Below, piece by piece: positions 11,856 to 57,129 of a DNA stretch of 64,000 nucleotides. The notes under the pieces are model-generated. The model made no database searches, had not been told where the DNA came from, and saw only the letters and a list, made by a program, of their open reading frames with translations. The position numbers and the translations under genes are program-made. How positions within the stretch are numbered: position 1 is the stretch's first letter; each line of letters begins with the position of its first letter. The stretch comes from Escherichia coli (lineage in GTDB: Bacteria; Pseudomonadota; Gammaproteobacteria; Enterobacterales; Enterobacteriaceae): NCBI GenBank assembly GCA_902500125.1, contig GCA_902500125.1_4132.1, one strand, 5' to 3'.

Positions 11856-11860
11856 GTTGA

Positions 11861-11890
11861 CAAACACATTCAGTACTGTATAATGCTTAT
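11861..11890 (+). promoter_or_regulatory. sigma70-like promoter (TTGACA-N16-TGTATAAT)
   Basis: TTGACAAACACATTCAGTACTGTATAATG upstream of gene 11932. Confidence 0.6.
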
Positions 11891-14100: not shown

Positions 14101-14874
14101 ATGACCCGTCAAGAGAAAGCAATCCAAATCGAAAAAAACTTCAATAGCATGATGGCTGCACTGGAATGCCTTCTTGATACACAAGCTAACTCTATCAACT
14201 CTCTGATCGTATCAGGTAAAGGTGGTGTTGGTAAAACTTATAACGTTGACCAACGGTTGCAGAAAGCTGATGATAACTTTGAAATCGACTACAAGAAAAT
14301 CAGTGGTAAAGTAACTACTTTGGGTCTGTACGAAGCACTGTATCGTTCACGTCATGCCGCATCAGTACTGTTACTTGATGACGTTGATATCTTCTCTGAC
14401 GAGACTAATATTGATTTGCTTAAAGCTGTGTTGGATACGTCAGAGAAGCGTGTAGTTTCTTACGCGACTTCTGCTAAGTACCTGGAACAGCAGGGTATCC
14501 CTAAGCAGTTTGAATTCCGTGGTAAAGTAATCTTTCTGACTAACAAAAACCTGTCACAGATTGCTAAAGGTAAAAGCAGCTTAGCACCACACATCGATGC
14601 ACTGATCACTCGTAGTATCTTTGTTGACCTGCAACTGTTCACCAACGAAGAAGTGATGATTCACATTGAGAACATCATGAACAAAACTAACATCCTTGAA
14701 AACAATGGTGTTAACAAAAATGGTTGTAAAGCAATCCTGAATTGGATGCTGAACAACGAAGAACGTTTGCGTAGTCCATCACTGCGTATGCCAGTACTGA
14801 TCGCTGGTTTGTATAATAAATTCCCATACGATTGGGAATCAATGGCAGAGAATATGTTCCTTGAGAAAATTTAA
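14101..14874 (+). CDS. P-loop ATPase with deviant Walker A (ParA/MinD/Mrp-like)
   Basis: RBS AAGGAGACAAACCATG; VSGKGGVGKT Walker A and VLLLDDVD Walker B-like; 257 aa. Confidence 0.5.
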   Translation: MTRQEKAIQIEKNFNSMMAALECLLDTQANSINSLIVSGKGGVGKTYNVDQRLQKADDNFEIDYKKISGKVTTLGLYEALYRSRHAASVLLLDDVDIFSDETNIDLLKAVLDTSEKRVVSYATSAKYLEQQGIPKQFEFRGKVIFLTNKNLSQIAKGKSSLAPHIDALITRSIFVDLQLFTNEEVMIHIENIMNKTNILENNGVNKNGCKAILNWMLNNEERLRSPSLRMPVLIAGLYNKFPYDWESMAENMFLEKI

Positions 14875-27894: not shown

Positions 27895-27919
27895 AGAATG
27901 AATATAAGGAGAACTGCAC

Positions 27920-28147
27920 ATGACAAATACTTTTAAGTACTACCTCAATACTCTAAATGAACTAGAGTACGCGAAGTTTCTCGCGGATTGTTCGTGGCTA
28001 ATTGAGCTAAAAAAATATAACAGTACTGGATGTAACCTTATGCTGAACAATGCACTTGATACCCTTGTAGTGAGCATTTTACACAACAACATCTGCGGGG
28101 ATAGAAACAAACAATTATCAAAAATCTTAGTACTGCTATCTATATGA
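27920..28147 (+). CDS. array-1 small paralog (75 aa)
   Basis: RBS ATAAGGAGAACTGCACATG; YY...L motif. Confidence 0.55.
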   Translation: MTNTFKYYLNTLNELEYAKFLADCSWLIELKKYNSTGCNLMLNNALDTLVVSILHNNICGDRNKQLSKILVLLSI

Positions 28148-28347
28148 ATATCGAACAGTACTACATCGATGCACTACCAACAAAAGGTCTACGTGAAAGC
28201 CTACTGCATACACAAACTAATTTCAAACACCTCAAACGTAGCCCTAAACTCCTGAACTCGTACAGGAATAATAACATAAGAAATGCTTTACAAGGGGTAG
28301 AATGTATGCAATACTATTACATCCTTACCCTATTAATCGAGTACTAA
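28144..28347 (+). CDS. array-1 small paralog
   Basis: ATGA overlap; MNIEQYYIDALP. Confidence 0.55.
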   Translation: MNIEQYYIDALPTKGLRESLLHTQTNFKHLKRSPKLLNSYRNNNIRNALQGVECMQYYYILTLLIEY

Positions 28348-28348
28348 T

Positions 28349-28558
28349 ATGAATACTGAACATAAAGAATTCTACACCAAATACCTTAGCAACGAAGAAC
28401 AATTGTTTCTAAGGAGTGTATCACCTGTAAGTACCAATACTCAATTCGGTAGAGATTGCTTTAATAATTGTATACGTAGTACTCTAGAAGCAATCGAATG
28501 CAATAACAAAAATATTATGTACTCAGGTTTAATAGGACTAATATATTTCTATGAATAA
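28349..28558 (+). CDS. array-1 small paralog
   Basis: MNTEHKEFYTKYLS...; near-duplicate of 31333. Confidence 0.55.
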   Translation: MNTEHKEFYTKYLSNEEQLFLRSVSPVSTNTQFGRDCFNNCIRSTLEAIECNNKNIMYSGLIGLIYFYE

Positions 28559-28745
28559 TCATAAAGATTTCTATTGTAGTAAACTACCCAAACAAGAACA
28601 GCTATCATTCTCTTTAGCACCACCTATGAGAAAGGATAATCTGTATTATAATTACGATTTCAGGATGGTGACACGTTATGCAATAGAACATCAATTTCCT
28701 GAAACTAAGTACTTATCTATCATGAACATCATCTTTAAGTTCTAA
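28551..28745 (+). CDS. array-1 small paralog
   Basis: MNNHKDFYCSKLP; overlaps the upstream stop. Confidence 0.55.
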   Translation: MNNHKDFYCSKLPKQEQLSFSLAPPMRKDNLYYNYDFRMVTRYAIEHQFPETKYLSIMNIIFKF

Positions 28746-28756
28746 AAGAGTACTAT

Positions 28757-28969
28757 ATGAAAACTATGAACATTCATCAGTACTACTTGGATATTCTCCC
28801 TAAAGATGTACAGTTCATCCTTAAACAAGAATACAGTACTTTAAAAAACCTTAAAAGAACCGCACCGAATGTATTAATCCTGCACCAAGAAAATGTAGTT
28901 GATAATATTCTACAAGGTGTACCAGGAACCGAGTACTTTAACATAATAAGGCTAATTACATTACCATGA
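28757..28969 (+). CDS. array-1 small paralog
   Basis: MKTMNIHQYYLDILP. Confidence 0.55.
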   Translation: MKTMNIHQYYLDILPKDVQFILKQEYSTLKNLKRTAPNVLILHQENVVDNILQGVPGTEYFNIIRLITLP

Positions 28970-29151
28970 ATCATATATTATACTATTACCAAAATCTATC
29001 CGACAGGGACAAGTACACCCACAACTCCCATGTATGGTACTACAAACGCGGTAGTATAAGGGACAAACAACATTACTTCAGTACTGCTATAAAAGAAACA
29101 CTAACAACTAAGTACACGTACAGAGCAGTACTGAAACTTATTGATATGTAA
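28966..29151 (+). CDS. array-1 small paralog
   Basis: ATGA overlap; C-terminal YTYRAVLKLIDM. Confidence 0.55.
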   Translation: MNHILYYYQNLSDRDKYTHNSHVWYYKRGSIRDKQHYFSTAIKETLTTKYTYRAVLKLIDM

Positions 29152-29161
29152 AGAGAATACT

Positions 29162-29347
29162 ATGAATACATTTGAGTACTATACAAATAAACTATCTATG
29201 CCAGAAAGATCTCATCTCTATGTGTGGAGAAATGCGTATAAAAGCGGCAATAAACTTATACAAAGAAATTCCCTTACAGTGTGTACAAATTTAATTAAAG
29301 CAGAGTACCGCACATATATTGAAGTACTGAAACTAATCTCTATCTAA
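29162..29347 (+). CDS. array-1 small paralog
   Basis: Internal Met MNTFEYYTNKL; C-terminal EVLKLISI. Confidence 0.5.
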   Translation: MNTFEYYTNKLSMPERSHLYVWRNAYKSGNKLIQRNSLTVCTNLIKAEYRTYIEVLKLISI

Positions 29348-29355
29348 GGTACTCT

Positions 29356-29535
29356 ATGCAAGAATTCTATATCTATAAACTTCAGCACAAAGATAGATAC
29401 AACTATAATAAATTCCAAAGGTACTACACAGTCGGGAACAAAAGAGATAAAAAACGATACTTTCTATCATGTACAGTAGAAGCACAAAACGAAAAGTACA
29501 CGTACAGAGAAGTACTGAAACTCATCTCTATGTAA
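29356..29535 (+). CDS. array-1 small paralog (59 aa, below track cutoff)
   Basis: MQEFYIYKLQ...YTYREVLKLISM, paralogous to 28966. Confidence 0.45.
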   Translation: MQEFYIYKLQHKDRYNYNKFQRYYTVGNKRDKKRYFLSCTVEAQNEKYTYREVLKLISM

Positions 29536-29543
29536 GGAATAAT

Positions 29544-29723
29544 ATGCAAGAATACTATATAGAACACATAAACATTAAAGACCGTTTCATGTACGACACC
29601 TTCGTGAAGTACTACAACCTGGCAACTAACAGTACTAAAAATATTAATCTCAATAGCTGCATTCATCACGCACTAACAAAAGATAATCCCTTCAGGGAAA
29701 TCCTCGCACTAGCATCTGTATAA
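29544..29723 (+). CDS. array-1 small paralog (59 aa)
   Basis: Internal Met MQEYYIEHINIKDRF; family-like. Confidence 0.45.
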   Translation: MQEYYIEHINIKDRFMYDTFVKYYNLATNSTKNINLNSCIHHALTKDNPFREILALASV

Positions 29724-29733
29724 AGGAAACCAA

Positions 29734-30393
29734 ATGAAACTTAATGCACACAGCAAACAATACCTTAAGCACTTTAAGTACCTCAACAGTATTCAAGCAG
29801 AATCTATTACATCTGCATATACGTATCACCCTAATGTACTAAAGAAACGAAATAAAAAGAAAAAATCCAGAAATGTTCTCGTATCTAAGAACCTCAAATC
29901 GTACTTGAAGAAAAATAATATAGCTCTTGCTTTTATTAATATCTATCATACTGATTTAAAAGTATTGAGTACTAATACCAGCACAAAAGCACTAAAGAAT
30001 GCATCTATCTATATACACATGGATAATATCCCGTGCACTATAATTCTATCTTTCGGGAATGTATACTTCTTCGGGAATTGTAATAGCACCCATGATATCA
30101 GTACTGCACAATTCCAAATCGGCGATATGTACTGCATGGGTTCAGAAAAAATACACGATAACATGCACTTCTTCCAAAAGCAACGTACTAACGAAACTGA
30201 TACAGTACTGCAATTCCTCAAAGAACTACAAAACAAAGAATTAACACCAGAAGAAGAATTCATGTACAGTACTGTAATCGATAATCCAGAACTCTATAAA
30301 AACGCGTACAAACTAACAAAACATGTACAGGAACTTATCAGTACTGATAAGAAATTTCATAACCTCATTACGTATATTACAAACTATGTATAA
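29734..30393 (+). CDS. hypothetical protein (219 aa) embedded in array 1
   Basis: ORF track; RBS AAGGAAACCAAATG. Confidence 0.6.
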   Translation: MKLNAHSKQYLKHFKYLNSIQAESITSAYTYHPNVLKKRNKKKKSRNVLVSKNLKSYLKKNNIALAFINIYHTDLKVLSTNTSTKALKNASIYIHMDNIPCTIILSFGNVYFFGNCNSTHDISTAQFQIGDMYCMGSEKIHDNMHFFQKQRTNETDTVLQFLKELQNKELTPEEEFMYSTVIDNPELYKNAYKLTKHVQELISTDKKFHNLITYITNYV

Positions 30394-30571
30394 AGAATAC
30401 TACATAGAGAAACTCCCAATGTATCTCCAACACCTTCTACCAACAGAACCATTGGGTATAGAAAAAAACTACGAAAAAGACTACTTCATTCAGTGCACTA
30501 AATCCTCGATATATATTGAAGACTATAATCGAGTACTGTATCACATCCTTTTACTAATATATAGGTACTAA
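30386..30571 (+). CDS. array-1 small paralog
   Basis: Internal Met MYKEYYIEKLP...LLLIYRY. Confidence 0.5.
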   Translation: MYKEYYIEKLPMYLQHLLPTEPLGIEKNYEKDYFIQCTKSSIYIEDYNRVLYHILLLIYRY

Positions 30572-30572
30572 T

Positions 30573-30755
30573 ATGCACAAAGAATACTACACACAATTTC
30601 TCCCCAGCATTTTTGAACACTACGCCAGATACAAAGTCCCTATGGATAACGATTTGGCAGTACTGGGATTCAATAACTGCATAGAACGAAGTATAGAAAA
30701 TAGTAGTAGTTATGACCAGCTATATAACACTATCCTACTTATATTCAGGTACTAA
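30573..30755 (+). CDS. array-1 small paralog
   Basis: MHKEYYTQFLP...ILLIFRY. Confidence 0.55.
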   Translation: MHKEYYTQFLPSIFEHYARYKVPMDNDLAVLGFNNCIERSIENSSSYDQLYNTILLIFRY

Positions 30756-30756
30756 T

Positions 30757-30945
30757 ATGCATAAAGAATACTACACAAAATATTTCCCAATGTACCTCAG
30801 TACTAATCTATTAGATAAACCTCGCGGTATCAATGCACAAAACGATAAAGTGTACTTTACTATGTGCACTAAAGCATGTATACTAGATTTTGACAGCTAT
30901 CATCGAGTACTGTATCATACCCTGTACCTAGCTTTCGTATTCTAA
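30757..30945 (+). CDS. array-1 small paralog
   Basis: MHKEYYTKYFP...YLAFVF; starts directly after the upstream stop. Confidence 0.55.
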   Translation: MHKEYYTKYFPMYLSTNLLDKPRGINAQNDKVYFTMCTKACILDFDSYHRVLYHTLYLAFVF

Positions 30946-30954
30946 AAGAACAAT

Positions 30955-31140
30955 ATGCATAAAGAATTCTACTTAAGCCATCTCGATCTAAACTCCCAAA
31001 TGCTTATACCACTAATCCCAATAGATATCAAGGATAAGAAAAATACCGAACAATTCATTTACCATACACAGTGTGCGATCACCCCAAATTACATTCCATA
31101 TGAATTGTACTACATTATCGCCCTAATATATAGGTACTAA
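30955..31140 (+). CDS. array-1 small paralog
   Basis: MHKEFYLSHL...IALIYRY. Confidence 0.55.
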   Translation: MHKEFYLSHLDLNSQMLIPLIPIDIKDKKNTEQFIYHTQCAITPNYIPYELYYIIALIYRY

Positions 31141-31141
31141 T

Positions 31142-31327
31142 ATGCATAGAGAATACTACACACAATTTGTTAAAGGGAACTACAAACATGCCGTACCCAG
31201 AACCCCTTTAAATTCTCATGACCCAAGTACTATATTCTTGTTTAATGACGCAATACGTACAGTACTCAATACTAAAGATGAACAAGTGCAGTACGTATTC
31301 TTACTATTACTTATATACAGACACTAA
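31142..31327 (+). CDS. array-1 small paralog
   Basis: MHREYYTQFV...LLLIYRH. Confidence 0.55.
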   Translation: MHREYYTQFVKGNYKHAVPRTPLNSHDPSTIFLFNDAIRTVLNTKDEQVQYVFLLLLIYRH

Positions 31328-31332
31328 CTAAT

Positions 31333-31542
31333 ATGAATAAAGAACATAAAGAATACTACTCCAAACACCTCAGCCCCTCAGAACAAATGTTTCTAAGGAC
31401 TACTCCACCTTTAAGTACTAATACATTTTTCGGCAGAGTATGCTACAATAATTGTATTCAAATGACTTTAAACGCAAACGAAGATGGTAACAGTACTAAC
31501 CTGTACTCAGGTATCATAGGTATACTATTCCTGTATGAATAA
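31333..31542 (+). CDS. array-1 small paralog
   Basis: MNKEHKEYYSKHLS...; paralog of 28349. Confidence 0.55.
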   Translation: MNKEHKEYYSKHLSPSEQMFLRTTPPLSTNTFFGRVCYNNCIQMTLNANEDGNSTNLYSGIIGILFLYE

Positions 31543-31723
31543 TTACAAAGACTTCTATTTGAATACACTACCTACTGTACTTTCTCTAAGTGCTCAATGT
31601 AAAATCCCGCTGGATAATGCTTACGCCAGATATAGCTATTCCATAACTGTTAATCGATGTATAGAGAATCATTGCAGTACTAACCAGTACTATAACATAA
31701 TCCTACTTATATTCAGGTACTAA
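31535..31723 (+). CDS. array-1 small paralog
   Basis: MNNYKDFYLNTLP...ILLIFRY. Confidence 0.55.
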   Translation: MNNYKDFYLNTLPTVLSLSAQCKIPLDNAYARYSYSITVNRCIENHCSTNQYYNIILLIFRY

Positions 31724-31724
31724 T

Positions 31725-31907
31725 ATGAATAAAGAACATAAAGAATTCTATATACGAAAACTAACATTCGTCCCCGTAAGAATATATAAAGAATGCGACC
31801 CAAGATTATACCTATGGCACTTCAATGAGTGCATAAAAGATTCTATATACCATAAGAACTATAAAGAACAATTGTGCTCAGTACTAACACTAGTACTATC
31901 ATATTAA
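31725..31907 (+). CDS. array-1 small paralog
   Basis: MNKEHKEFYIRKL. Confidence 0.55.
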   Translation: MNKEHKEFYIRKLTFVPVRIYKECDPRLYLWHFNECIKDSIYHKNYKEQLCSVLTLVLSY

Positions 31908-31922
31908 TTAATAGAGAATACT

Positions 31923-32114
31923 ATGTATAAAAACTTCTATATAAGTAAACTAAAAGAAAATGAACAAGTATGGATTAGATCTATAATTCCACTGGCATTT
32001 AATAGATATGCATTTAACAGATGTACCGAGATTGCTATAGACCCTTATAATATTAAAGAGAATGTACAGTATAATCAGTACTACTATATCTTAATGCTTA
32101 TATATAGAAAGTAA
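31923..32114 (+). CDS. array-1 small paralog
   Basis: MYKNFYISKL...ILMLIYRK. Confidence 0.55.
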   Translation: MYKNFYISKLKENEQVWIRSIIPLAFNRYAFNRCTEIAIDPYNIKENVQYNQYYYILMLIYRK

Positions 32115-32290
32115 TTAAACACATAGAGACAGGGGAAGCTCCTAGTGAACAACCTTTATGTACAGGCGAATTGTTAAAATTCAGCCTGGACAAATGCGAT
32201 CACTAGGATTCTCCCCAGGCTAAACCCCGTAATCATAGGTAGTCATAAGTAATCATATATAAACATTTATATGAGCACCGTAGAATCACA

Positions 32291-32388
32291 GAATGATTAT
32301 ATATGATTCAGTACTGATTAGTATAGACAAGATTGCTCAAGAATGCACGGAAATGTGTGTGAATGATTATATATGATTCAGTACTGAT
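32291..32388. repeat. two direct copies of GAATGATTATATATGATTCAGTACTGAT (28 bp) 70 bp apart
   Basis: Exact duplicates at 32291-32318 and 32361-32388 in the non-coding zone. Confidence 0.7.
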
Positions 32389-32762
32389 ATGCCACTAAGT
32401 AGGCAGAGGAAGTCTGCCGTACTTTGTAGTTTCCAAGCTCCTTTTCCATTTTGCAAATTACATCAAATGTAATCAAAAGTAATCACACAATGATTAGTAC
32501 TGAATTATTACTTTCACCTTAATTACAATTACCCTTTTACCCTTCGGGGTAAAATTCCATTACCCCTTGAGGCTCCAGCAAAAAGTTGGTTAGTACTCCA
32601 TCCTAAATCTCGATCCTAAAAATTTTGGAGTACCTATGAAATAAAAGTTGGATCTTCGAAAGTTGAAATTTACGTTGGGACGTTTATGATTTGTGGGATA
32701 TAATGATGTTTGTAGTCGGGTAGTTCTCAAGAATATCAGTACTGAATAATGAAAGAAAGCTA

Positions 32763-32790
32763 TTGACATTATGATTCAGTACTGTATAAT
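32763..32790 (+). promoter_or_regulatory. orphan strong promoter (TTGACA-N16-TGTATAAT) with no downstream ORF
   Basis: TTGACATTATGATTCAGTACTGTATAATG followed by a cassette-like leader ACATAGAGAG and a T-rich stretch about 110 nt later. Confidence 0.5.
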
Positions 32791-33192
32791 GTTCTACATA
32801 GAGAGATGAGTTGCCGCAAACAATTCATTCACTCTACCTCCTGTCGTGAGACAGTACTGAAAGGATAGTTCCTCCTATGGGTGGTACATCTTTTTATAAC
32901 CTCTTTTTTCGTAATATAAACAGTACTGATATTAACAGAATGGTGTCAGTACTGATTTTAATCTAAAGCATTATGCCACCAGCTTGTGCTGGTGGATTCC
33001 CTCTAACAGTATTCAGTACTACATGATGGTCTTCATCCTCCTAGGGTAACATAGTGAGGGCTATGATGGCAGTACTGAATACTCCCTTTCAAAAGATAGA
33101 TCTATGGTATAGTACTGACGGATTTTGGGTGTAGTTACCCTGGGTGGATTTTGGACGTAGATATGTCTAGCCCTCCAGAAGTCTGGAAGTAA

Positions 33193-33332
33193 AGATGGCT
33201 ATCCATCTAGACGGCTAAACGGCTAGATTTCTGGATGGCTGGATGGCTAGATTTCTGGATGGCTGGATGGCTAGACGTTTGGACGGCTAAACGGCTAGAT
33301 GGTTACACGTCTGGAAGTATAGACGGCTAAAT
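33193..33332. repeat. iteron array of about 12 copies of an 8-bp unit GRWYGGCT (GGATGGCT/GACGGCTA/AACGGCTA)
   Basis: GACGGCTAAACGGCTAGATTTCTGGATGGCTGGATGGCTAG... tandem short repeats. Confidence 0.7.
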
Positions 33333-33949
33333 CAAAATTTTATTTTGTTTTTTCCAATAGTTCCCCTACCGCGTGGGGATAGTTTCCCCGCAGTATCTGG
33401 AGTTAGATTTTTCTGAATCTGGAATCATTATCTTATAAACTGGGGGCAATGTCAACGGCCTGGACGGATATTTTTAAAAATTTTTTCAGTACTGAATTTT
33501 GGGCGTAACTATGCACCCGGTGGGCTTGAGTCTTTCTCGACTTGATGGAACTATTATACAGTACTGAAAAAATAAAGCAATACCCTGGAAGCAAAAAAAT
33601 TTTAATTAATTTGCTTGCTATCCTGGGCCGGACTATGGTACTATATTTCAGTACTGAGAAAGTGCGTTTGCCTGCTAGGGTGCGGGAGTGTATCCTTTTT
33701 TTATATCTTGAATTTTGGGCGTAATTCCGCACCCCCTGGGGTTTCCGCTTTCTCGCGTCTATGTAGTAATTATACGCTTTTTCAGGATCAAGTCAATACC
33801 TAAAAACAAAATAATTGAAAATAATTTAACGCGTTTAAACGGCCCGTAAAGCCCTGGAATGATTAGAATGGTGCAAATGTATAGCTTAGGTGTATTAATG
33901 CGTTAGAATGCGTCTGAGGCCGTTTTACGGGGTATAGGGATGATTTAGT

Positions 33950-34104
33950 GGATTGATTCAGTACTGAATAATAGTACTCCTATATAGAAAGATAGTTCCC
34001 CTGGATTGATTCAGTACTGAATAATAGTACTCCTATATAGAAAGATAGTTCCCCTGGATGGTTGCAGTACTGAATGATAGTACTGAATAATAGTTCCCCT
34101 ATAT
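33950..34104. repeat. three tandem copies (~52 bp) of GGATTGATTCAGTACTGAATAATAGTACTCCTATATAGAAAGATAGTTCCCCT
   Basis: Copies 1 and 2 identical; copy 3 degenerate. Confidence 0.75.
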
Positions 34105-34142
34105 AGAAAGAAAACTATTTTAAAAGTATTTGTAGAAAGTAC

Positions 34143-34201
34143 TTGCAAACTAAGTTTAACGGCGTATAATGTTTTACATCGAGAGCGGGAACACTTCCCG
34201 C
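34143..34201 (+). promoter_or_regulatory. early-type cassette: A-tract/AGTACTTGCAA -35, TATAAT, 5' leader hairpin GCGGGAA-CAC-TTCCCGC
   Basis: AAAGTACTTGCAAACTAAGTTTAACGGCGTATAATGTTTTACATCGAGAGCGGGAACACTTCCCGC. Confidence 0.65.
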
Positions 34202-34225
34202 TACATATTACGAGAGATTAAAACG

Positions 34226-34588
34226 ATGGCGACTCAAATCACTAAAATTATTGCTAACCTGGTTAACTTTCGCGACGAGATGAAAGATCTTCCGGCAGAA
34301 ACGGTAAAAATTCACATTTCAGCTTATCGGGAACTTATTGCAATGTTACCGCTTAAGCGTGAACAATACGCCGCGACCGTGATGCTTGATGCGATGATCC
34401 ATAAGATGATCGCCAGTGATTTAACGATGGTTTATCAGTATATGGGCGAAAATTTCGCGGTGTATAGTAAACCAGTACCAGGAATGGAAAGTACAGAAGT
34501 ATTACACGGTTTAAATTTAAAACAAGATGCATGGGATAATATGCCTCGTTTCCTGGTATGGGCTGACAGTGGCAAGATTTACGAATAA
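34226..34588 (+). CDS. hypothetical early protein (120 aa)
   Basis: Start placed after the leader hairpin (MATQITKII); the ORF-track N-terminus would span the promoter. Confidence 0.55.
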   Translation: MATQITKIIANLVNFRDEMKDLPAETVKIHISAYRELIAMLPLKREQYAATVMLDAMIHKMIASDLTMVYQYMGENFAVYSKPVPGMESTEVLHGLNLKQDAWDNMPRFLVWADSGKIYE

Positions 34589-34602
34589 GTTTTAGAAAGT
34601 AC

Positions 34603-34659
34603 TTGCAAACTAAGTTTAAAAGCGTATAATGTTTTACATCAGGTGGGGAATAGTTCCCC
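34603..34659 (+). promoter_or_regulatory. early cassette promoter + leader hairpin GGGGAATAGTTCCCC
   Basis: TTGCAA-N16-TATAAT; hairpin 34645-34659. Confidence 0.65.
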
Positions 34660-34681
34660 ACTATATAAGAGGATTAAAAAA

Positions 34682-34921
34682 ATGGCTAAATCAAAAATGT
34701 TCTTAGGTCACAAAAACAAAACTCATTGGAATGTAAGCCTTTGGATTAATAACGATGAGTCATTGTACCGGTTGGCCCAGGACTTTATTAACGATAGCAC
34801 TAATCGCAATGATGCGGCCCGTCATATGATGTTATTTTTAGAACAGACTGGACAAGATAAAACACCGGACGGATTCAAATATAGCACTACTGCGATCCGT
34901 GCGGCTATGGTTGGAATGTAA
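34682..34921 (+). CDS. hypothetical early protein (79 aa); paralog of 36724..36963
   Basis: RBS AAGAGGATTAAAAAAATG; MAKSKMFLGHKNKTHWNVSLWINN shared with its paralog. Confidence 0.6.
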   Translation: MAKSKMFLGHKNKTHWNVSLWINNDESLYRLAQDFINDSTNRNDAARHMMLFLEQTGQDKTPDGFKYSTTAIRAAMVGM

Positions 34922-34947
34922 TAGAATAGAATTTATTTAAAGTACTA

Positions 34948-34972
34948 TTGCACGGGGATAGTACTTTATAAT
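34948..34972 (+). promoter_or_regulatory. putative weak promoter (TTGCAC ... TATAAT, short spacer)
   Basis: ATTGCACGGGGATAGTACTTTATAATAG; spacing is non-canonical. Confidence 0.3.
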
Positions 34973-35009
34973 AGTGTTTTATTCATACACCAACGATAAG
35001 GGCAACAGC

Positions 35010-35276
35010 ATGAATATTAAGTATTTTGCGACGCGTGAACAAGCTCGGATCGCCGCTCGCCAGGACGGGGCAACGTTTAAAGATATGGGCGTACAATCGG
35101 AACGTGGTAAACGTTGGGCCATTGTAAAGCGTAGTACAGCCAGATCATTACAGTACTGGTTAGCGGCGTTAAAAAGTCCCGATAGTGTATCGCGTCGAGT
35201 GGTAGAAATAAAGCTCGACCGAAAGGGCAACCGCGTGACCGTGTACCGTACTAAAAAGATTGCAGTACTTGAATAA
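35010..35276 (+). CDS. hypothetical early protein (88 aa); paralog of 46942..47337
   Basis: MNIKYFATREQARIAARQDGATFKDMG...DRKGNRVTVY shared with 46942. Confidence 0.55.
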   Translation: MNIKYFATREQARIAARQDGATFKDMGVQSERGKRWAIVKRSTARSLQYWLAALKSPDSVSRRVVEIKLDRKGNRVTVYRTKKIAVLE

Positions 35277-35284
35277 AAAGTACT

Positions 35285-35341
35285 TGCACCGTACTGATAA
35301 AAGCGTATAATGTTTTACATCGAGAGCGGGAACTCTTCCCG
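35285..35341 (+). promoter_or_regulatory. early cassette promoter + leader hairpin GCGGGAACTCTTCCCGC
   Basis: TTGCAC-N15-TATAAT; loop variant of cassette 1. Confidence 0.6.
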
Positions 35342-35363
35342 CCTATAACCTGGAGTAATGAAA

Positions 35364-35594
35364 ATGACTAATATGTATATGACTGAAGTTAAAACCGTAA
35401 AAGATACTACCACGAATAAAACTACTTACTTACAGCGGATCTGTGGTGTATGGCAACGTATCAGCAAATCAAAGTACTTTAAATTAACATCATATGCAAA
35501 CCGTTCGGATTCATTCAGTACTGAAATAAAAGGTAATAAAGTACACCAATACGGCACTTATTATTATTACAGCCTGGACGCGATTGCAGTATAA
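35364..35594 (+). CDS. hypothetical early protein (~76 aa)
   Basis: RBS CTGGAGTAATGAAAATG, second ATG chosen. Confidence 0.5.
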   Translation: MTNMYMTEVKTVKDTTTNKTTYLQRICGVWQRISKSKYFKLTSYANRSDSFSTEIKGNKVHQYGTYYYYSLDAIAV

Positions 35595-35624
35595 GCAGTT
35601 TACAAATCTTTACAATTGCCGGTA

Positions 35625-35653
35625 TTGACTTATTTTGTCAGTACTGGCATAAT
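35625..35653 (+). promoter_or_regulatory. promoter TTGACT-N17-CATAAT with no ORF for ~370 nt
   Basis: TTGACTTATTTTGTCAGTACTGGCATAATG; the transcript would cover intergenic elements A and B. Confidence 0.45.
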
Positions 35654-35843
35654 GTATTCATTGGCAGATAAGCCGTAGCCCATAGGGTGCGGGAGTGTAT
35701 CTATAGAAAAATTAGTTTAGTATAGTTACAATTGTGCACCCGGTGGGTTAGCTGTTGTCATGGGGTATATTATGCCAGTACTTGATAATGCTGTCAATAC
35801 TTTTTTTTAATATTCAGTACTGAAAACTATTTTTAAAAAGTAC

Positions 35844-35871
35844 TTGTAAACTATGTTTAAAGGCGTATAAT
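35844..35871 (+). promoter_or_regulatory. early promoter (TTGTAA-N16-TATAAT), upstream one of a tandem pair
   Basis: AAAAAGTACTTGTAAACTATGTTTAAAGGCGTATAATG. Confidence 0.6.
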
Positions 35872-35880
35872 GTTTTACAT

Positions 35881-35960
35881 CAGGACGGGGAACGAAATAA
35901 GTAACTTCCCGTTAAGTAGCCCAGGAGTAAGGCACACGAAAAACTCCCCTGATAAAATAG
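35881..35960 (+). ncRNA. ~80-nt structured leader/candidate small RNA between tandem promoters (copy 1)
   Basis: CAGGACGGGGAACGAAATAAGTAACTTCCCCGTTAAGTAGCCCAGGAGTAAGGCACACGAAAAACTCCCCTGAT; duplicated at 46021-46100 with stem-preserving changes. Confidence 0.35.
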
Positions 35961-35961
35961 T

Positions 35962-35989
35962 TTGACAATAGAAAGTAAAAGCGTATAAT
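35962..35989 (+). promoter_or_regulatory. promoter TTGACA-N16-TATAAT (downstream of the tandem pair)
   Basis: TTGACAATAGAAAGTAAAAGCGTATAATAC. Confidence 0.6.
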
Positions 35990-36021
35990 ACTTACATCAA
36001 CTACTGAATGAGGGTTACAAA

Positions 36022-36633
36022 ATGAAAACTATCACTACTACTACTTTTGTTATGGCTTTTTCTGAACTGAACGCAGAACAAAAAACGGCGGCTATCGAAC
36101 TGGTTCGGGATCGTGAGCGTTCATGTGAGGATAATTTCTTTGCTGAGGGCGTTATCGAGTACTATAAAGAAACAGTACTACCAGAATACGGCATAGATGA
36201 AGCTGAATTGCAATACAGTGGTTTTTGGTCGCAAGGTGACGGTGCATCAATCAGTACTAACCACGTTGACGCTGAGAAGTTTTTACGCAAGGTTAAGGCG
36301 TTAACGAAATATCGTTCAATCCGTCACCTGTTGAACGAGGATGATTTAGAAATGAGTGTAGAACGTTTCCAATCACGCTACGCACACGAAAACACGGTAG
36401 GCGGTTGCGTTGATACTCGCTACACTGATTTAACTGTAAAACAGGCGGCATTGGCTGAGGATCTGGAAAACTTACTGACTGATGCGATCCGTGAATTATC
36501 TCGTAAGTTGTACCGTGATTTAGAGAATGCATATGAGGATCAATTCACTACTGAAAACATTACTGCACTGATTGAGGGTAACGAATATCAATTCAATGTT
36601 ATTGATGGCGTAGTGGAATCAATCGAATATTAA
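36022..36633 (+). CDS. acidic hypothetical protein (203 aa)
   Basis: ORF track; RBS TGAGGGTTACAAAATG. Confidence 0.65.
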   Translation: MKTITTTTFVMAFSELNAEQKTAAIELVRDRERSCEDNFFAEGVIEYYKETVLPEYGIDEAELQYSGFWSQGDGASISTNHVDAEKFLRKVKALTKYRSIRHLLNEDDLEMSVERFQSRYAHENTVGGCVDTRYTDLTVKQAALAEDLENLLTDAIRELSRKLYRDLENAYEDQFTTENITALIEGNEYQFNVIDGVVESIEY

Positions 36634-36645
36634 TTTAAAAAGTAC

Positions 36646-37291: not shown

Positions 37292-37350
37292 TTGCAATTA
37301 GTTTTCAGTACTGTATAATGGTTTACATCAAAGGGAGAAATGGTTCTCCC
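37292..37350 (+). promoter_or_regulatory. early cassette promoter + leader hairpin GGGAGAAATGGTTCTCCC
   Basis: TTGCAA-N16-TGTATAAT (extended -10). Confidence 0.65.
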
Positions 37351-43860: not shown

Positions 43861-43889
43861 TTGACAATATCATCCAGTACTGGCATAAT
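43861..43889 (+). promoter_or_regulatory. promoter TTGACA-N17-CATAAT with ~295-nt leader
   Basis: TTGACAATATCATCCAGTACTGGCATAAT; the leader holds element A and a cluster of GATCAA/TGATCA motifs. Confidence 0.55.
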
Positions 43890-49782: not shown

Positions 49783-49843
49783 TTGACAAAGTATATCAGT
49801 ACTGTATAATAGTTTACATCAAGGGGAGAATAGTTCTCCCCAA
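49783..49843 (+). promoter_or_regulatory. early cassette promoter (TTGACA-N16-TGTATAAT) + hairpin GGGGAGAATAGTTCTCCCC
   Basis: Near-duplicate of the 49292 cassette. Confidence 0.65.
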
Positions 49844-51754: not shown

Positions 51755-51783
51755 TTGACAAAGTATATCAGTACTGCAATAAT
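51755..51783 (+). promoter_or_regulatory. promoter TTGACA-N16-CAATAAT
   Basis: AAAAAGTATTGACAAAGTATATCAGTACTGCAATAATG. Confidence 0.45.
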
Positions 51784-51836
51784 GTATCTCGTAGGGCGGC
51801 AATGGTGCGACGGCCCACAAAGTTAGGAGATTCAAA

Positions 51837-53129: not shown

Positions 53130-53158
53130 TTGACTTTTTATACGAATCGTATATTATA
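53130..53158 (+). promoter_or_regulatory. promoter TTGACT-N17-TATTAT for array 2
   Basis: TTGACTTTTTATACGAATCGTATATTATAGG about 30 nt before the first array gene. Confidence 0.5.
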
Positions 53159-53187: not shown

Positions 53188-53385
53188 ATGCGTATTTTAA
53201 CTCAAGCAGAACATCACGAAAGACTTATCAATAACATGGCATATATCCTACATATGTCACATATCCGTGGTATTGCATATAAGCGTGAATTGGTTATGGC
53301 ACTATTCATTGGAACTAACTTTCAGGAAAGGTATGTCAAGGATTGGATTTCATATTTAATTGAAGATATAACGGGTAAACTATGA
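53188..53385 (+). CDS. array-2 small paralog (LGTN[YF]QE motif)
   Basis: RBS-like GGAGTCCCTATG; ...FIGTNFQERYVKDWISYLIEDITGKL. Confidence 0.55.
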   Translation: MRILTQAEHHERLINNMAYILHMSHIRGIAYKRELVMALFIGTNFQERYVKDWISYLIEDITGKL

Positions 53386-53589
53386 AAATTATCACACAAT
53401 TTCAACTATATAATCTTATGATCGAATATAGAAAGAATATATATATATACCAGATGAGTTATCTAGGGATGAAAAAAAGTTTATTCTATCGGAGTGGTGG
53501 ATGATGGCTGGACTGGGAACCAACTTCCAAGAAAGTTTTGTTAATGATTGGATTTTACATTTAATAAAAGATATAAAGAGTAAACAATG
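53382..53589 (+). pseudogene. array-2 paralog with frameshift at a (TA)n tract
   Basis: MKIITQF... then AATATATATATATAC run (~53438-53449); the C-terminal family motif WWMMAGLGTNFQESFVNDWILHLIKDIKSKQ is in another frame. Confidence 0.45.
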
Positions 53590-53796
53590 AAAACTATAAC
53601 ACGAACCCAATCATTAGGTCTTATCTTGAAATACATGGACTTAATGTTGGATATCAGCAAAGACCTTCCTAAAACTGAAATCCAAGTTGCAAGAGCAGAG
53701 ATCCGCATGTTGGCTGTACTGAACACAAACCATCAGGAAGATTATGTTGAAGAATGGATTCGATTTTTAATAGAAGATATAAAGAGTAAATTATGA
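53587..53796 (+). CDS. array-2 small paralog
   Basis: ATGA overlap; LNTNHQEDYVEEWIRFLIEDIKSKL. Confidence 0.6.
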   Translation: MKTITRTQSLGLILKYMDLMLDISKDLPKTEIQVARAEIRMLAVLNTNHQEDYVEEWIRFLIEDIKSKL

Positions 53797-54008
53797 TTAT
53801 TATAGAAAACTCATATCAATATACTGAACGCATCGCTGCCAGACAACTTGAAATCCTCATAATATACGAAGAGACTTCTGATTTAAACTTAGCCGAGGTA
53901 TTGGAAAATGATATACTATTGGGTGCATTCTTAGGAACAGACTATCAGAAGTATTATGAGGAAAAGTATTTGTCATCTCTTGAGAAATATATCAGGAGCA
54001 AATTATGA
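53793..54008 (+). CDS. array-2 small paralog
   Basis: ATGA overlap; FLGTDYQKYYEEKY. Confidence 0.6.
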   Translation: MIIIENSYQYTERIAARQLEILIIYEETSDLNLAEVLENDILLGAFLGTDYQKYYEEKYLSSLEKYIRSKL

Positions 54009-54217
54009 TTTTTTTAACACCAGAAGAATATAAGAAACGTTTCAATTCCGCACAGGGTGAAATCTTACTTATATACCTTTCAAATGCAGACCTTAACTTA
54101 TCAAGGGTATTAGAAAAAGATTTACTTATGGGTGCATTCCTTGATACAGACTTTCAGGTGTATTATGTAGGGGAATACTTAATTGCACTTCAGAATTATA
54201 TCAGGAGTAAACTATGA
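54005..54217 (+). CDS. array-2 small paralog
   Basis: ATGA overlap; FLDTDFQVYYVGEY. Confidence 0.6.
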   Translation: MIFLTPEEYKKRFNSAQGEILLIYLSNADLNLSRVLEKDLLMGAFLDTDFQVYYVGEYLIALQNYIRSKL

Positions 54218-54441
54218 AACATTTAAGTAATTCCGAGAAGAATAAAATTATCATTGCTGCAATAAACAAATATTTTACACTTCCTCACAAAGAAGGTTTA
54301 TGTATAAGAGAACACAGGATAAACACCACCGATATACGCATGATGGCTGTACTGGGGACGAACTTCCAGGAAGAGTATGTTATTGCACACATAGTTGCAC
54401 TCAAGAATTACATTATGGACAAATGTAATGAACATCATTAA
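54214..54441 (+). CDS. array-2 small paralog
   Basis: ATGA overlap; VLGTNFQEEYVIAH. Confidence 0.6.
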   Translation: MKHLSNSEKNKIIIAAINKYFTLPHKEGLCIREHRINTTDIRMMAVLGTNFQEEYVIAHIVALKNYIMDKCNEHH

Positions 54442-54652
54442 TAACTTTGAATACGAGGCCCGTGCTAAGAGTGCCAGAAAAAAAGAGAACACCATTTACT
54501 TCACTATGATGTACTTACAATGGACTGAAATTGAAGAAAAGGTTGCTGAAGTATGGATGTTGGAATTCATGGGGACGCAGTATCAGAATAGGTTTGCGGG
54601 TGAGTATATCAATGTTCTTATGAAACAAATAGAAAGAAAGGAAAAGAACTAA
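54428..54652 (+). CDS. array-2 small paralog
   Basis: Internal Met; FMGTQYQNRFAGEY. Confidence 0.5.
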   Translation: MNIINNFEYEARAKSARKKENTIYFTMMYLQWTEIEEKVAEVWMLEFMGTQYQNRFAGEYINVLMKQIERKEKN

Positions 54653-54810
54653 TGGTTTTCATTAACATATCTGACCAACTCGATACTAAACTAGAAGTCG
54701 AGCAGAGTGAGGGATGGATGTTGTACTTTCTTGGAACTTCTCATCAGAATTTTTATATCCATGAACACATAGTTGCACTCACAAATCTAATAAGGGATAA
54801 ATGTAAATGA
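54652..54810 (+). CDS. array-2 short paralog (52 aa)
   Basis: TAATG overlap; FLGTSHQNFYIHEHIVAL; below the track cutoff. Confidence 0.4.
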   Translation: MVFINISDQLDTKLEVEQSEGWMLYFLGTSHQNFYIHEHIVALTNLIRDKCK

Positions 54811-55064
54811 AACACTTGACGAACGATGAATATTCACTTAGAATTCGAAAGCTCACCCCAGAAGCAAGAGTAATCTACGATGACGATGCACTTTCATGGA
54901 ACGAGATGAAAGTTAAAGTTCATGAGCTATGGTTGCTGTACTTTGTGGGAACCCAATATCAAGAGAAATATTGTACCGATTATCTTGAACAACTAATGGA
55001 TCTTATACAGATAAAACTAAATGAACGAATTGTGGAAAAATATGAAAACTTTATCAAGCACTGA
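54807..55064 (+). CDS. array-2 small paralog
   Basis: ATGA overlap; FVGTQYQEKYCTDY. Confidence 0.6.
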   Translation: MKHLTNDEYSLRIRKLTPEARVIYDDDALSWNEMKVKVHELWLLYFVGTQYQEKYCTDYLEQLMDLIQIKLNERIVEKYENFIKH

Positions 55065-55293
55065 GTATCAAACTGCCCTCTTCTCCCTTCTAAACACCCT
55101 CCGCACGAACAATAAACTTTATAATTCCCGTGAAGCTGATATCGTCAACGCTGATGTATATCTTAATAAATTCATAGGGACTAACTATCAAGAACTGTTC
55201 ACTCTACGATATATCGCTGCATTGAGAAACGAAATATCAGATAAAACCCGTCAAGCCAGAAGAGAATGGAATAAACAATGCGACAAAGACTAA
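55042..55293 (+). CDS. array-2 small paralog
   Basis: FIGTNYQELFTLRY; start ambiguous (55021 or 55042). Confidence 0.5.
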   Translation: MKTLSSTEYQTALFSLLNTLRTNNKLYNSREADIVNADVYLNKFIGTNYQELFTLRYIAALRNEISDKTRQARREWNKQCDKD

Positions 55294-55514
55294 ATCACAA
55301 AATGTATTGTAAACTATTGCAGACACTGGCACAGAAACACTATGACACTGTATCTGAAATATTACCCTATGATATCATGCGTTTAATTCATAGTGAGGCA
55401 GAGATGCTTGTACTGATGACAGGCACTGATAAAAAAGCAATTGCCAAATCAATAGATATGTTCATCGAAGCACAATGTCAACACATTAGAACCGAGATAT
55501 GGAGACGAGAATGA
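55278..55514 (+). CDS. array-2 small paralog (divergent)
   Basis: LMTGTDKKAIAKSIDMFIEAQCQHI. Confidence 0.5.
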   Translation: MRQRLNHKMYCKLLQTLAQKHYDTVSEILPYDIMRLIHSEAEMLVLMTGTDKKAIAKSIDMFIEAQCQHIRTEIWRRE

Positions 55515-55726
55515 TAACACTAAATGAGTTTCAGTATCATTGGAGGTTACAAACTATCAAATCAAAAGTGTATAGTATTGTGTTAAACAAATCTATTGCA
55601 CAAGAGGACAAATGTGTTATAATAGCTGAAATGAAGTTGGGTGCTTTCGTAGGGACAAACTATCAAAACATCTACACTGACGTATTGTTAAGTGCCTTAC
55701 GTAACAAGGTGGTATCCAAAATATGA
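55511..55726 (+). CDS. array-2 small paralog
   Basis: ATGA overlap; FVGTNYQNIYTDVL. Confidence 0.6.
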   Translation: MITLNEFQYHWRLQTIKSKVYSIVLNKSIAQEDKCVIIAEMKLGAFVGTNYQNIYTDVLLSALRNKVVSKI

Positions 55727-55941
55727 GAAATTTACAAGGCTTTGAATACATCAGACTCCTGAAAACATGCACCAGCAGAAGGAAAATCTTATCAAGCGAT
55801 AAGAGCATCCAAGCTAACCTTAAGCACGCACTAGTAACTGAACTCTATGTAGGTGCACTCTTAGGCACAAACTATCAACAAATGTATGTGGATCTATGGA
55901 TTGACGCTCTACAGAAAGAGGTTAAAAGTAAATGCAAATGA
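55723..55941 (+). CDS. array-2 small paralog
   Basis: ATGA overlap; LLGTNYQQMYVDLW. Confidence 0.6.
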   Translation: MRNLQGFEYIRLLKTCTSRRKILSSDKSIQANLKHALVTELYVGALLGTNYQQMYVDLWIDALQKEVKSKCK

Positions 55942-56150
55942 TTAATTTAAGTAAAGATGAATATTATGAACGTCTTGCAAAAACTTATCCAGCACGTAAG
56001 GCCGTTTATGATAGTCACATTATTGAACGCTCAAAGAAGTTGATTGTAGTAAATGAGATTAAGATGCTTTCAGTCTTAGGAACAAACTATCAAGAGAATG
56101 CTGTACTGTTGTTAATTGATGCCCTCCAGAGAGAGATACAAAGTAAATGA
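55938..56150 (+). CDS. array-2 small paralog
   Basis: ATGA overlap; VLGTNYQENAVLLL. Confidence 0.6.
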   Translation: MINLSKDEYYERLAKTYPARKAVYDSHIIERSKKLIVVNEIKMLSVLGTNYQENAVLLLIDALQREIQSK

Positions 56151-56395
56151 TTCATTTATCTTACCATGATTATCAAAAACGTTTAAATGCATCAAGGGAT
56201 ATAAGGATTCAAATCTTCAATAACAAAAAATTGAAACCTGACACCAGAAGAATCAAAATGATAGAAGCAGAGTTATGCAACTTCCTGGGGACGAACTATC
56301 AGGCAGGTAAGGTAAAAAACTATCTTAGAGAACTAATGATTTGTATCGAAAATAAATGTGAGGTTGATGAACATGCAAATGATCAATTTAAGTAA
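56147..56395 (+). CDS. array-2 small paralog
   Basis: ATGA overlap; FLGTNYQAGKVKNY. Confidence 0.6.
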   Translation: MIHLSYHDYQKRLNASRDIRIQIFNNKKLKPDTRRIKMIEAELCNFLGTNYQAGKVKNYLRELMICIENKCEVDEHANDQFK

Positions 56396-56636
56396 AGATG
56401 AATATACCGAGCGTATGACAAAAATTACGCACAAACGTAATACAATCTATCACAACCCAGAAATTCAACACAGTAAGAAAATGATTATGATGCGTGAGTT
56501 AAAGATGGGTGTATTCTTGGGAACAAACTATCAAGAGCCAGAAGTAAATCGATTAATTGCTGAGTTACTATTGGAAATCAAAGGTAAGCTGTACTTTCAT
56601 CAAATGACCCAGCCACTGAGGTGTACTGATCGATGA
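56379..56636 (+). CDS. array-2 small paralog
   Basis: MINLSKDEY start by analogy with 55938; FLGTNYQEPEVNRL. Confidence 0.5.
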   Translation: MINLSKDEYTERMTKITHKRNTIYHNPEIQHSKKMIMMRELKMGVFLGTNYQEPEVNRLIAELLLEIKGKLYFHQMTQPLRCTDR

Positions 56637-56884
56637 ATGCGATGAATATTGTGAATAACATCAGATTAGCAGAAAGATTTGATAGAATTGGGGAAGCACT
56701 GAGAAGATACGATAAAGAATATGGTCATTTGAGCTTTTCTATAGAAAAGAGATATGAACTTGAAGCAGAGTTTAAAATGCAGAGTCTCTTAGGCACACAG
56801 TATCAAAACCAATATATTCAAACTTGGATTGATTGTTTAATCCAGACAATTTACGTAAGAAACATTAAATGCAAAATGAAATGA
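56633..56884 (+). CDS. array-2 small paralog
   Basis: ATGA overlap; LLGTQYQNQYIQTW. Confidence 0.55.
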   Translation: MNAMNIVNNIRLAERFDRIGEALRRYDKEYGHLSFSIEKRYELEAEFKMQSLLGTQYQNQYIQTWIDCLIQTIYVRNIKCKMK

Positions 56885-57129
56885 TATACTTAACCTATAA
56901 TGAATACGTCGAGAGATTAGTTCGTGCCAAGAGATATACCAATAAACGTCCAATTGACCTAAACCAAACCCCAGCAGAAAGGAGTGCAGAAGTATTATTC
57001 CAATCACTACCATATCTTCTGGGAACTGATAGACAAGAGGAATATGTTGCACGTATGATTAGATATCTTAAAATCACTATTAAGGAAAAAGTAAATGCAA
57101 ATGCAAATGAAATACTTAACAGACGATGA
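56881..57129 (+). CDS. array-2 small paralog (divergent, LGTDRQEEY)
   Basis: ATGA overlap; paralog of 57107. Confidence 0.5.
   Translation: MIYLTYNEYVERLVRAKRYTNKRPIDLNQTPAERSAEVLFQSLPYLLGTDRQEEYVARMIRYLKITIKEKVNANANEILNRR

Follow-up and report, generated by a model that had tools for sequence, protein, structure and literature searches.

A genus-specific tandem family of small-protein genes beside the direct terminal repeat of an Asteriusvirus jumbo coliphage

The window analysed here is a 64,000-nucleotide stretch of DNA (GenBank assembly GCA_902500125.1, contig GCA_902500125.1_4132.1, deposited as Escherichia coli) that comes from a jumbo coliphage of the 121Q/PBECO4 group, genus Asteriusvirus, a Rak2-like myovirus. 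At positions 27920-32114 its + strand carries 19 back-to-back genes, namely 18 small open reading frames (ORFs) of 59–75 aa and one gene of 219 aa (29734-30393, hereafter X219). We show that this array is a genuine multigene family, specific to the genus and so far uncharacterised. Of its 18 small genes, 17 are diverged paralogs of a single genus-restricted protein of about 60 aa, and all 19 genes form a 4.2-kb polycistronic unit in unique sequence just inside a direct terminal repeat (DTR) of about 20.7 kb. A first-pass annotation made from the sequence had described about 20 small paralogous ORFs in tandem; the tandem array stands, and paralogy is supported for all small genes but the first one, m01.

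The spacing between consecutive genes ranges from -8 to +15 nt. ATGA overlaps are found at 28144 and 28966, 8-nt overlaps of the ATGAATAA type at 28551, 30386 and 31535, and TAATATG junctions (gap of 1) at 28349, 30573, 30757, 31142 and 31725, so that the ATGA/TAATATG junctions of the first-pass annotation are borne out by the ORF listing and gap measurement. Start refinement moved four mechanically listed ORFs to internal, family-consistent ATGs (29162, 29544, 30386 and 30757). A canonical Shine-Dalgarno sequence, AAGGAG (27907-27912, + strand, 7 nt ahead of the first ATG), precedes only the first gene of the array. Internal genes have AGG or GAG 8–11 nt upstream of their start, often supplied by the last codons of the preceding gene (...AGG TAC TAA T ATG). 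In the annotation of phage G17, terminators are predicted after almost every neighbouring gene and none is placed within the array. Given this spacing, the single Shine-Dalgarno sequence and the terminator-free G17 array, the locus reads as one translationally coupled operon. Its putative promoter is of the sigma-70 type (TTGACA-17 nt-TACTAT, 27866-27894, + strand) and holds the palindrome CAGTACTG in its spacer.

Homology among the small ORFs was evaluated with leave-one-group-out hidden Markov models (HMMs), for which the 755 ORF fragments from all six frames of the window served as targets. Eleven genes constitute a core group: m03 (28349-28558, 69 aa), m04 (28551-28745, 64 aa), m10 (30386-30571, 61 aa, start refined from 30323), m11 (30573-30755, 60 aa), m12 (30757-30945, 62 aa, start refined from 30712), m13 (30955-31140, 61 aa), m14 (31142-31327, 61 aa), m15 (31333-31542, 69 aa), m16 (31535-31723, 62 aa), m17 (31725-31907, 60 aa) and m18 (31923-32114, 63 aa), the final gene of the array. 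All are on the + strand, as is every other gene of the array. Core members that had been left out were retrieved at E-values of 2e-10 to 1e-4, and nothing else was significant among these fragments. The motif reported in the first-pass annotation holds for this group, in the form M-H/N-K-E-F/Y-Y ... F-N-x-C-I/T ... Y-x-x-I-L-x-L-I-Y/F-R-Y.

Group B, which contains m02 (28144-28347, 67 aa) and m05 (28757-28969, 70 aa, missing in some relatives), and group C, which contains m06 (28966-29151, 61 aa), m07 (29162-29347, 61 aa, start refined from TTG 29141), m08 (29356-29535, 59 aa) and m09 (29544-29723, 59 aa, start refined from 29469), were linked to the core by profile-profile comparison (hhalign), using profiles built with orthologs from eight related phages. 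Both links are full-length, with 85% probability and an E-value of 6e-6 for group B and 69% probability and an E-value of 4.5e-5 for group C; m07 was in addition matched at E 1.2e-5 with group C left out. Only m01 (group A, 27920-28147, 75 aa), the first gene of the operon, escaped. It has in common with the family a C-terminal "ILVLLSI" helix motif, and its relation to the family was not significant by hhalign (E 0.003–0.005, probability about 10%), even with its divergent orthologs added. Since the likeness is limited to this helix motif, homology of m01 is not demonstrated; the gene is nevertheless kept at the first position in all relatives, including those with the divergent type II array described below.

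Pairwise identities within the array are low (8–57%; 10–57% among the 17 paralogs). The genes at 28349 and 31333 (m03 and m15, nucleotide repeat D1), described in the first-pass annotation as near-duplicates, have only 57% amino-acid identity, and 74% nucleotide identity over 246 nt, yet they are the closest pair. As m04 and m16 are paralogs too, 28349+28551 and 31333+31535 are paired two-gene units, which points to segmental duplication. The 219-aa gene is indeed unrelated to the small ORFs, neither hmmsearch nor hhalign giving a significant match. Both termini of X219 look, by eye, faintly like those of the family, but the possibility that it is a family member enlarged by fusion or expansion was rejected (best E 0.015–0.017, uncorrected for the database). 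An extra family member at 14315-14452 (E 2.5e-4) was likewise discarded: the match is a 24-residue out-of-frame segment inside a longer ORF and was judged to be due to chance. Kinship with a second array of small genes at 53188-59075 was also rejected (hhalign E >0.1).

Database searches place the family in a single genus. All 11 core genes match PHROG 11711 (function unknown), and five of them scanned singly gave E-values from 1.7e-12 (m03) to 7.9e-28 (m10), with 1.3e-22 for m04 and 7.1e-24 for m18. The same PHROG is matched by 33 of the 40 sequences of the family alignment, and end to end by all 22 database relatives tested, whereas the seven window genes outside the core (groups A, B and C) have no PHROG match. 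PHROG 11711 is thus the same family as our core and was already catalogued; its link with groups B and C is made here. The small proteins matched nothing in Pfam, NCBIfam or PADLOC, and the family profile matched no PDB sequence. The earlier remark that there is no recognisable domain therefore stands for Pfam, NCBIfam and PADLOC and has to be qualified for the core by its PHROG. As this PHROG carries no function, the family is not assigned to any characterised one.

A profile search of 5.8 billion proteins returned 61 sequences, all of them orthologs from Asteriusvirus-sized contigs, and an exhaustive HMMER scan of 1.84 billion representative proteins matched 34 clusters, all of 57–69 aa. By tblastn, the family was detected in 36 of 50,697 phage records, each of them an Asteriusvirus of Escherichia or Salmonella; in the same records it was not found in RaK2, GAP32, CBB or PA5oct. 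The database relatives are all named "hypothetical protein". X219 (PHROG 29152, function unknown) also has homologs only in Asteriusvirus. It occupies the same position in every array examined, its type II copy being 37–40% identical, and no enzyme signature was found in it in Pfam, NCBIfam or PHROGs.

The protein encoded by m11 was modelled with AlphaFold2 from only 40 family sequences. The model is a compact four-helix protein (residues 2–7, 12–20, 28–42 and 46–58) with a mean pLDDT of 93.5 and a pTM of 0.79. The structural check proposed in the first-pass annotation thus gave a confident fold; it has no structural relative outside the family, since a Foldseek search against PDB and viral models returned nothing but the family itself. 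The X219 model (pLDDT 37.6) is too poor to judge its fold. A conservation profile taken across 208 unique family sequences revealed a conserved hydrophobic and aromatic set spaced i,i+3/4 in helices 3 and 4 (F33, C36, T/I37, A40, L/I41, Y50, I53, L54, L56, I57 and Y/F58). L10 and P23-L24 are likewise conserved, as is the polar N-terminal motif H-K-E-[FY]-Y, in which tyrosine 6 is invariant, together with Q15. High variability is found in helix 2, in the central loop and on the outward faces of helices 3 and 4. Projected on the predicted structure, this pattern is that of one stable scaffold with diversified surfaces.

Neither a signal peptide nor a membrane-length hydrophobic stretch of about 20 residues was detected in the 18 small proteins. 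The longest hydrophobic run is the 9–10-residue motif of the C-terminal helix, which is packed into the bundle in the model, and the GRAVY index is below 0 for 17 of the 18 proteins (m01, at +0.13, is the exception). By these sequence criteria the small proteins are predicted to be soluble rather than membrane or holin-like proteins. Their isoelectric points span 5.3–9.6; about half are basic (pI >8.5), several are acidic, and the loops of group C proteins are rich in K/R.

In a comparison with the orthologs of seven related phages, the pooled pN/pS ratio is 0.37, with values of 0.04–0.63 for the small genes (0.52 for m01) and the highest value, 0.68, for X219, so that every gene stays below 0.7. 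These ratios, the reading frames preserved where array proteins are only 25–59% identical and the confident AlphaFold2 fold show that the array genes are real, and the ratios indicate purifying selection on every one of them. The rapid evolution assumed in the first-pass annotation is thus not seen at short range. In the type I comparison, pN/pS is 0.33 at conserved-core positions and 0.35 at all other positions, and positive selection on the variable positions was accordingly rejected. Because these positions have no amino-acid excess, the diversity is better explained as old or imported than as rapid recent substitution; change comes about by gain and loss of units and by cassette replacement.

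Copy number does vary among related phages, as the first-pass annotation suggested comparing: 15–22 family members were counted across 12 related loci. The conserved framework consists of the first gene, group B, a core pair, group C, X219 and then a run of core members; units are gained and lost chiefly among the group C genes and among the core genes that follow X219. Within the array, DNA conservation is highest at the gene junctions (...ATATAGGTACTAATATGCATAAAGAATACTAC...), which form repeat families of 69–82 nt (D2, D3, D7 and D10). Such a junction encodes the C-terminal R-Y-stop of one gene, supplies a Shine-Dalgarno-like AGG for the next one and encodes the M-H-K-E-Y-Y with which the latter begins. 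The array thus has the hallmarks of tandem duplication of the birth-and-death type, that is head-to-tail paralogs, copy-number polymorphism among close relatives and conserved junction homology.

A deeply diverged version, the type II array, is present in JNE01, Turkey5 and a metagenomic contig (ERR2737941). Its proteins are 25–59% identical to those of the window and its architecture is the same, but its DNA is almost unalignable with the window (compared over 27758-36645) until identity jumps to 91% over 4.5 kb from window position 32168, 54 bp past the stop codon of the array. Since the unalignable array lies between conserved anchors, the locus behaves as an exchangeable, deeply diverged cassette, and the sharp mosaic boundary, read from these alignments, indicates cassette exchange by recombination at conserved flanks. 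In the JNE01/Turkey5 lineage the neighbouring array of RCC1-like genes has been replaced along with the small genes. Partial megablast coverage had suggested that Salmonella phages have lost the left half of the array; this was rejected, as SD-15_S21 has a full 15-member array whose left half is merely more divergent.

Megablast of the array and its upstream neighbour matched 36–37 records of jumbo Escherichia/Salmonella phages (about 310–386 kb, 85–97% identity), and no phage record identical to the window was among the matches. A nucleus-forming (Goslar-like) phage was ruled out, BLAST and taxonomy placing the window in Asteriusvirus. Upstream of the array, on the - strand and divergent from it, are eight RCC1-like (beta-propeller) paralogs of 245–411 aa (18562-27816, PHROG 4219), separated from m01 by a 104-bp divergent intergenic region; phAPEC6 has 11 such genes and G17 has 12. 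Downstream, the linear G17 record ends, and the linear E9.1 record begins, at the base that corresponds to window position 32398. The G17 record carries a direct terminal repeat of 20,668 bp. Its DTR was estimated at about 20 kb by read coverage (PMC6563267), and that of Sharanji at 20,668 bp by PhageTerm (PMC11895373). Because the G17 and E9.1 record ends map there, we infer that the DTR spans 32398-53090 (about 20.7 kb) in the window; the array stops 284 bp short of its inner boundary.

The array promoter belongs to the class that prevails in the DTR. The TTGACA-N-CAGTACTG-TATAAT architecture is present at 9–10 + strand sites, mostly within the DTR, and the promoter region of the array is about 80% identical even in the divergent type II phages; the count of promoter-like sites in the region overall is at chance level. 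The 8-bp palindrome itself occurs 65 times in the 64 kb, and the one-base-longer TCAGTACTG has 63 matches where 0.5 is expected by chance. About ten copies of CAGTACTG lie in the spacer of a consensus sigma-70 promoter, immediately ahead of its -10 box (TTGACA-N7/8-CAGTACTG-TATAAT). Examples are found at 11857-11884, 27866-27894, 32763-32792, 35625-35655, 37292-37319, 43861-43889, 49783-49810 and 51755-51785, and copies cluster densely at 32309-34072, an ORF-poor stretch by the DTR boundary. The palindrome is probably a phage-specific promoter or operator element and, to judge by its place in promoter spacers, is probably recognised by some protein.

In PA5oct, a Rak2-like relative, the DTR genes form an early class whose transcription depends on host RNA polymerase (PMC7318152), and the authors of the CBB study drew the same inference for RpoD-like promoters (PMC5259590). 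As the promoter class of the array is common to the DTR and the DTR genes of PA5oct are early, early transcription of the array by host RNA polymerase is a reasonable inference. In phAPEC6, the corresponding proteins gp540c-gp548c are absent from a virion proteome of 62 proteins, in which the RCC1-like neighbours gp549 and gp551 are present (PMC7247149). This suggests that the array products are not virion proteins, although very small proteins are easily missed in a proteome.

From this anatomy we propose that the array arose by tandem duplication followed by birth-and-death evolution. The junctions would offer in-register homology for unequal crossing-over, by which whole genes would be added or removed, and this could account for the 15–22 copies among relatives. 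Host sigma-70 RNA polymerase would transcribe the operon early from its DTR-class promoter, and translational coupling would yield all members together. Each member might then be a small binder with its own surface specificity for a host protein, acting in host takeover or in the neutralisation of defence, and the array would amount to a repertoire of binders. A hyperdivergent cassette, a DTR-class promoter and the early DTR genes of PA5oct fit such an early, host-directed role. Our tentative view, held with somewhat less than even confidence, is that the small proteins are soluble, are made early and bind host proteins through surfaces that differ between paralogs, for takeover or against defence.

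Several observations weigh against this proposal. Close orthologs give no sign of positive selection. At the variable positions, where a continuing arms race should leave its mark, constraint is as strong as in the core. The early timing relies on promoter resemblance and on a distant relative, PA5oct, and either genome end might enter the cell first. The members are known here through sequence and predicted structure only. Tight translational coupling is equally typical of the subunits of one complex.

A narrower version of the proposal, which we regard as possible but rather unlikely, makes the array a repertoire of small inhibitors, in which one 60-aa four-helix scaffold has been diversified by duplication and cassette exchange into some 17 binders that are expressed together, each of which would block another host defence or another variant of a host factor, and which together with the RCC1-like array would be the host-range island of the genus. 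No tie to a defence or anti-defence family was detected in Pfam, functional PHROGs, NCBIfam, PADLOC, PDB sequences and folds or a viral fold library, none of them a library dedicated to anti-defence proteins. Similarly, no helix-turn-helix (Aca-like) regulator was found in the operon, X219 and all small ORFs being devoid of such a signature in Pfam.

Could the small proteins instead serve the adjacent RCC1-like proteins as chaperones, adaptors or regulators, the two arrays co-evolving as a host-range module? Both arrays are multi-copy and variable and have the 104-bp divergent intergenic region in common. They were swapped together in JNE01/Turkey5 while the DTR side is still 91% identical, and gp549 and gp551 show that RCC1-like proteins reach the phAPEC6 virion. 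However, the numbers of RCC1-like and small genes do not match (8 and 18 in the window, 12 and 17 in G17, 11 and 18 in phAPEC6). Moreover, the small genes form one operon with a DTR-type sigma-70 promoter, whereas nearly each RCC1-like gene of G17 has its own annotated terminator, and the small proteins are missing from the virion proteome, with the reservation on size made above. We consider this explanation improbable.

The coupling mentioned above could also fix the stoichiometry of a single hetero-oligomeric phage assembly, ring- or filament-like, in which the paralogs co-assemble. Stop and start codons that overlap or abut throughout the array, one hydrophobic scaffold common to all members and purifying selection on every ortholog are what such an assembly would show. 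A fixed assembly would, however, poorly tolerate the gain and loss of members that brings copy number from 15 to 22, and the isoelectric points (5.3–9.6) have no complementary pattern, so that we find this alternative very unlikely. We give equally little credit to the idea that the small proteins are nucleic-acid-binding regulators of the phage programme that, for example, bind CAGTACTG in early promoters to time transcription. That palindrome is over-represented and sits in promoter spacers, which makes it probable that a protein reads it, about half of the members are basic (pI >8.5) and the loops of group C are K/R-rich. Yet fold searches with the m11 model revealed no similarity to a helix-turn-helix or other DNA-binding fold, several members are acidic, and 17 divergent paralogs are hard to square with one invariant 8-bp site.

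There is also little to recommend the view that the array is near-neutral genome filler, a by-product of tandem duplication that enlarges the genome to fit a large capsid and has little present function. An array of more than 30 similar genes in 121Q was taken by Hua et al. (2017) as an expansion by duplication (PMC5646251), and members are individually dispensable, judging by their presence or absence among isolates. But pN/pS of the small genes is no higher than 0.63, a confident conserved fold is predicted, none of the 36 Asteriusvirus records has lost the array, and its two versions, though deeply diverged, have the same architecture; we see only a slim chance that it is filler. Finally, many small tandem genes beside one larger conserved gene recall a RiPP-like modified-peptide system, with precursor peptides and the 219-aa protein as modifying enzyme, but compact four-helix domains predicted to be conserved at both ends, rather than a conserved leader and a variable core, and the lack of an enzyme signature in X219 in Pfam, NCBIfam and PHROGs make this negligible.

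The proposal of host-directed binders can be set beside known systems. Anti-CRISPR and anti-defence operons combine small proteins (50–150 aa) with an Aca-type regulator and, to our knowledge, rarely hold 17 paralogs of one fold. Like them, the present locus groups small, lineage-restricted, fold-orphan proteins behind a strong early-type promoter; unlike them, it has no helix-turn-helix regulator that we could find and no similarity to any known inhibitor. The MGF100/110/360/505 families of African swine fever virus (ASFV) and the gene "accordions" of poxviruses are tandem paralogs near a genome end whose copy number differs between isolates through unequal recombination, and they act on host range and host immunity. 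The likeness to our array, which also lies beside a terminus, 284 bp from the DTR boundary, is one of organisation only. There is no homology, the array is bacterial-viral, its proteins are much smaller and its host-directed role is a proposal.

Early host-takeover blocks at terminal repeats are also known from phages, as the host-takeover module of SPO1, the pre-early genes of T5 and the terminal-repeat genes of Kayvirus. Such blocks, and that of PA5oct, consist mainly of unrelated genes in promoter-gene-terminator modules inside the repeat, whereas the array is an operon of paralogs just outside it. What they have in common with it is many small uncharacterised ORFs at or near long DTRs; theirs are early and have strong host-type promoters (PA5oct: PMC7318152).

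Hua et al. (2017, mBio, PMC5646251) devoted a single sentence to tandem arrays of similar small genes in the jumbo phages 121Q and G, and the remark on 121Q was repeated in a 2026 review (PMC13282480). The 121Q array is from the same phage group and consists of head-to-tail small paralogs read as tandem duplication, but it is unrelated in sequence to the present array; the array meant there is most probably the larger one at 53188-59075, which is not related to ours. Already known are therefore the core as a PHROG, the genes as hypothetical deposits and tandem small-gene arrays in 121Q; in kind, the locus belongs with the paralog arrays of large viral genomes.

Other features of the window were noted around the array. 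Two perfect 28-nt direct repeats, GAATGATTATATATGATTCAGTACTGAT, lie at 32291-32318 and 32361-32388, the second ending 10 nt before the DTR boundary at 32398; they occur nowhere else in the window and could be a terminus-generation signal. Region 32115-34168 is about 2 kb without convincing ORFs, in which G+C rises from 33% to 38% and no Rfam match was obtained. Within it lie a perfect TTGACA-16-TATAAT promoter (32763-32790) and a 53-bp sequence duplicated exactly in tandem (33949-34001 / 34002-34054), with a third, degenerate copy; the region may encode non-coding RNA or regulatory DNA. Structural RNAs were also considered and rejected, the whole window having neither Rfam matches nor tRNA genes. 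The DTR itself (32398-53090, + strand) carries many short promoter-gene(s)-terminator modules of small one-strand ORFs according to the G17 annotation, whereas both flanking arrays are terminator-free operons. The second of these (53188-59075, + strand) begins about 100 bp past the other DTR boundary (53090) with its own sigma-70-like promoter at about 53130-53158. It has at least 25 back-to-back ORFs of 65–92 aa with a "GTNYQE" signature and matches PHROG 4148/28039 (function unknown).

More than 80% of Asteriusvirus genes have no assigned function, and the array is among the clearest organised blocks of these. It is present in every member of the genus, in variable copy number, and lies right at the border of the terminal repeat. 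For annotation, the present analysis provides true start codons, the family membership of the ORFs, a promoter class and the position of the DTR boundary. Should the small proteins not be binders, the array would still document how a jumbo-phage genome grows by in-register tandem duplication at conserved junctions. If they are host-directed binders, the array would offer a compact library, assembled by nature, in which to look for new phage-host interaction targets or anti-defence activities, and it could help explain differences in host range among therapeutic jumbo coliphages. If, further, the inhibitor repertoire proved true, the family would add a new fold to the anti-defence proteins and be the counterpart, in a bacterial virus, of the terminal multigene families of ASFV and poxviruses, and others might be found as paralog arrays flanking phage terminal repeats.

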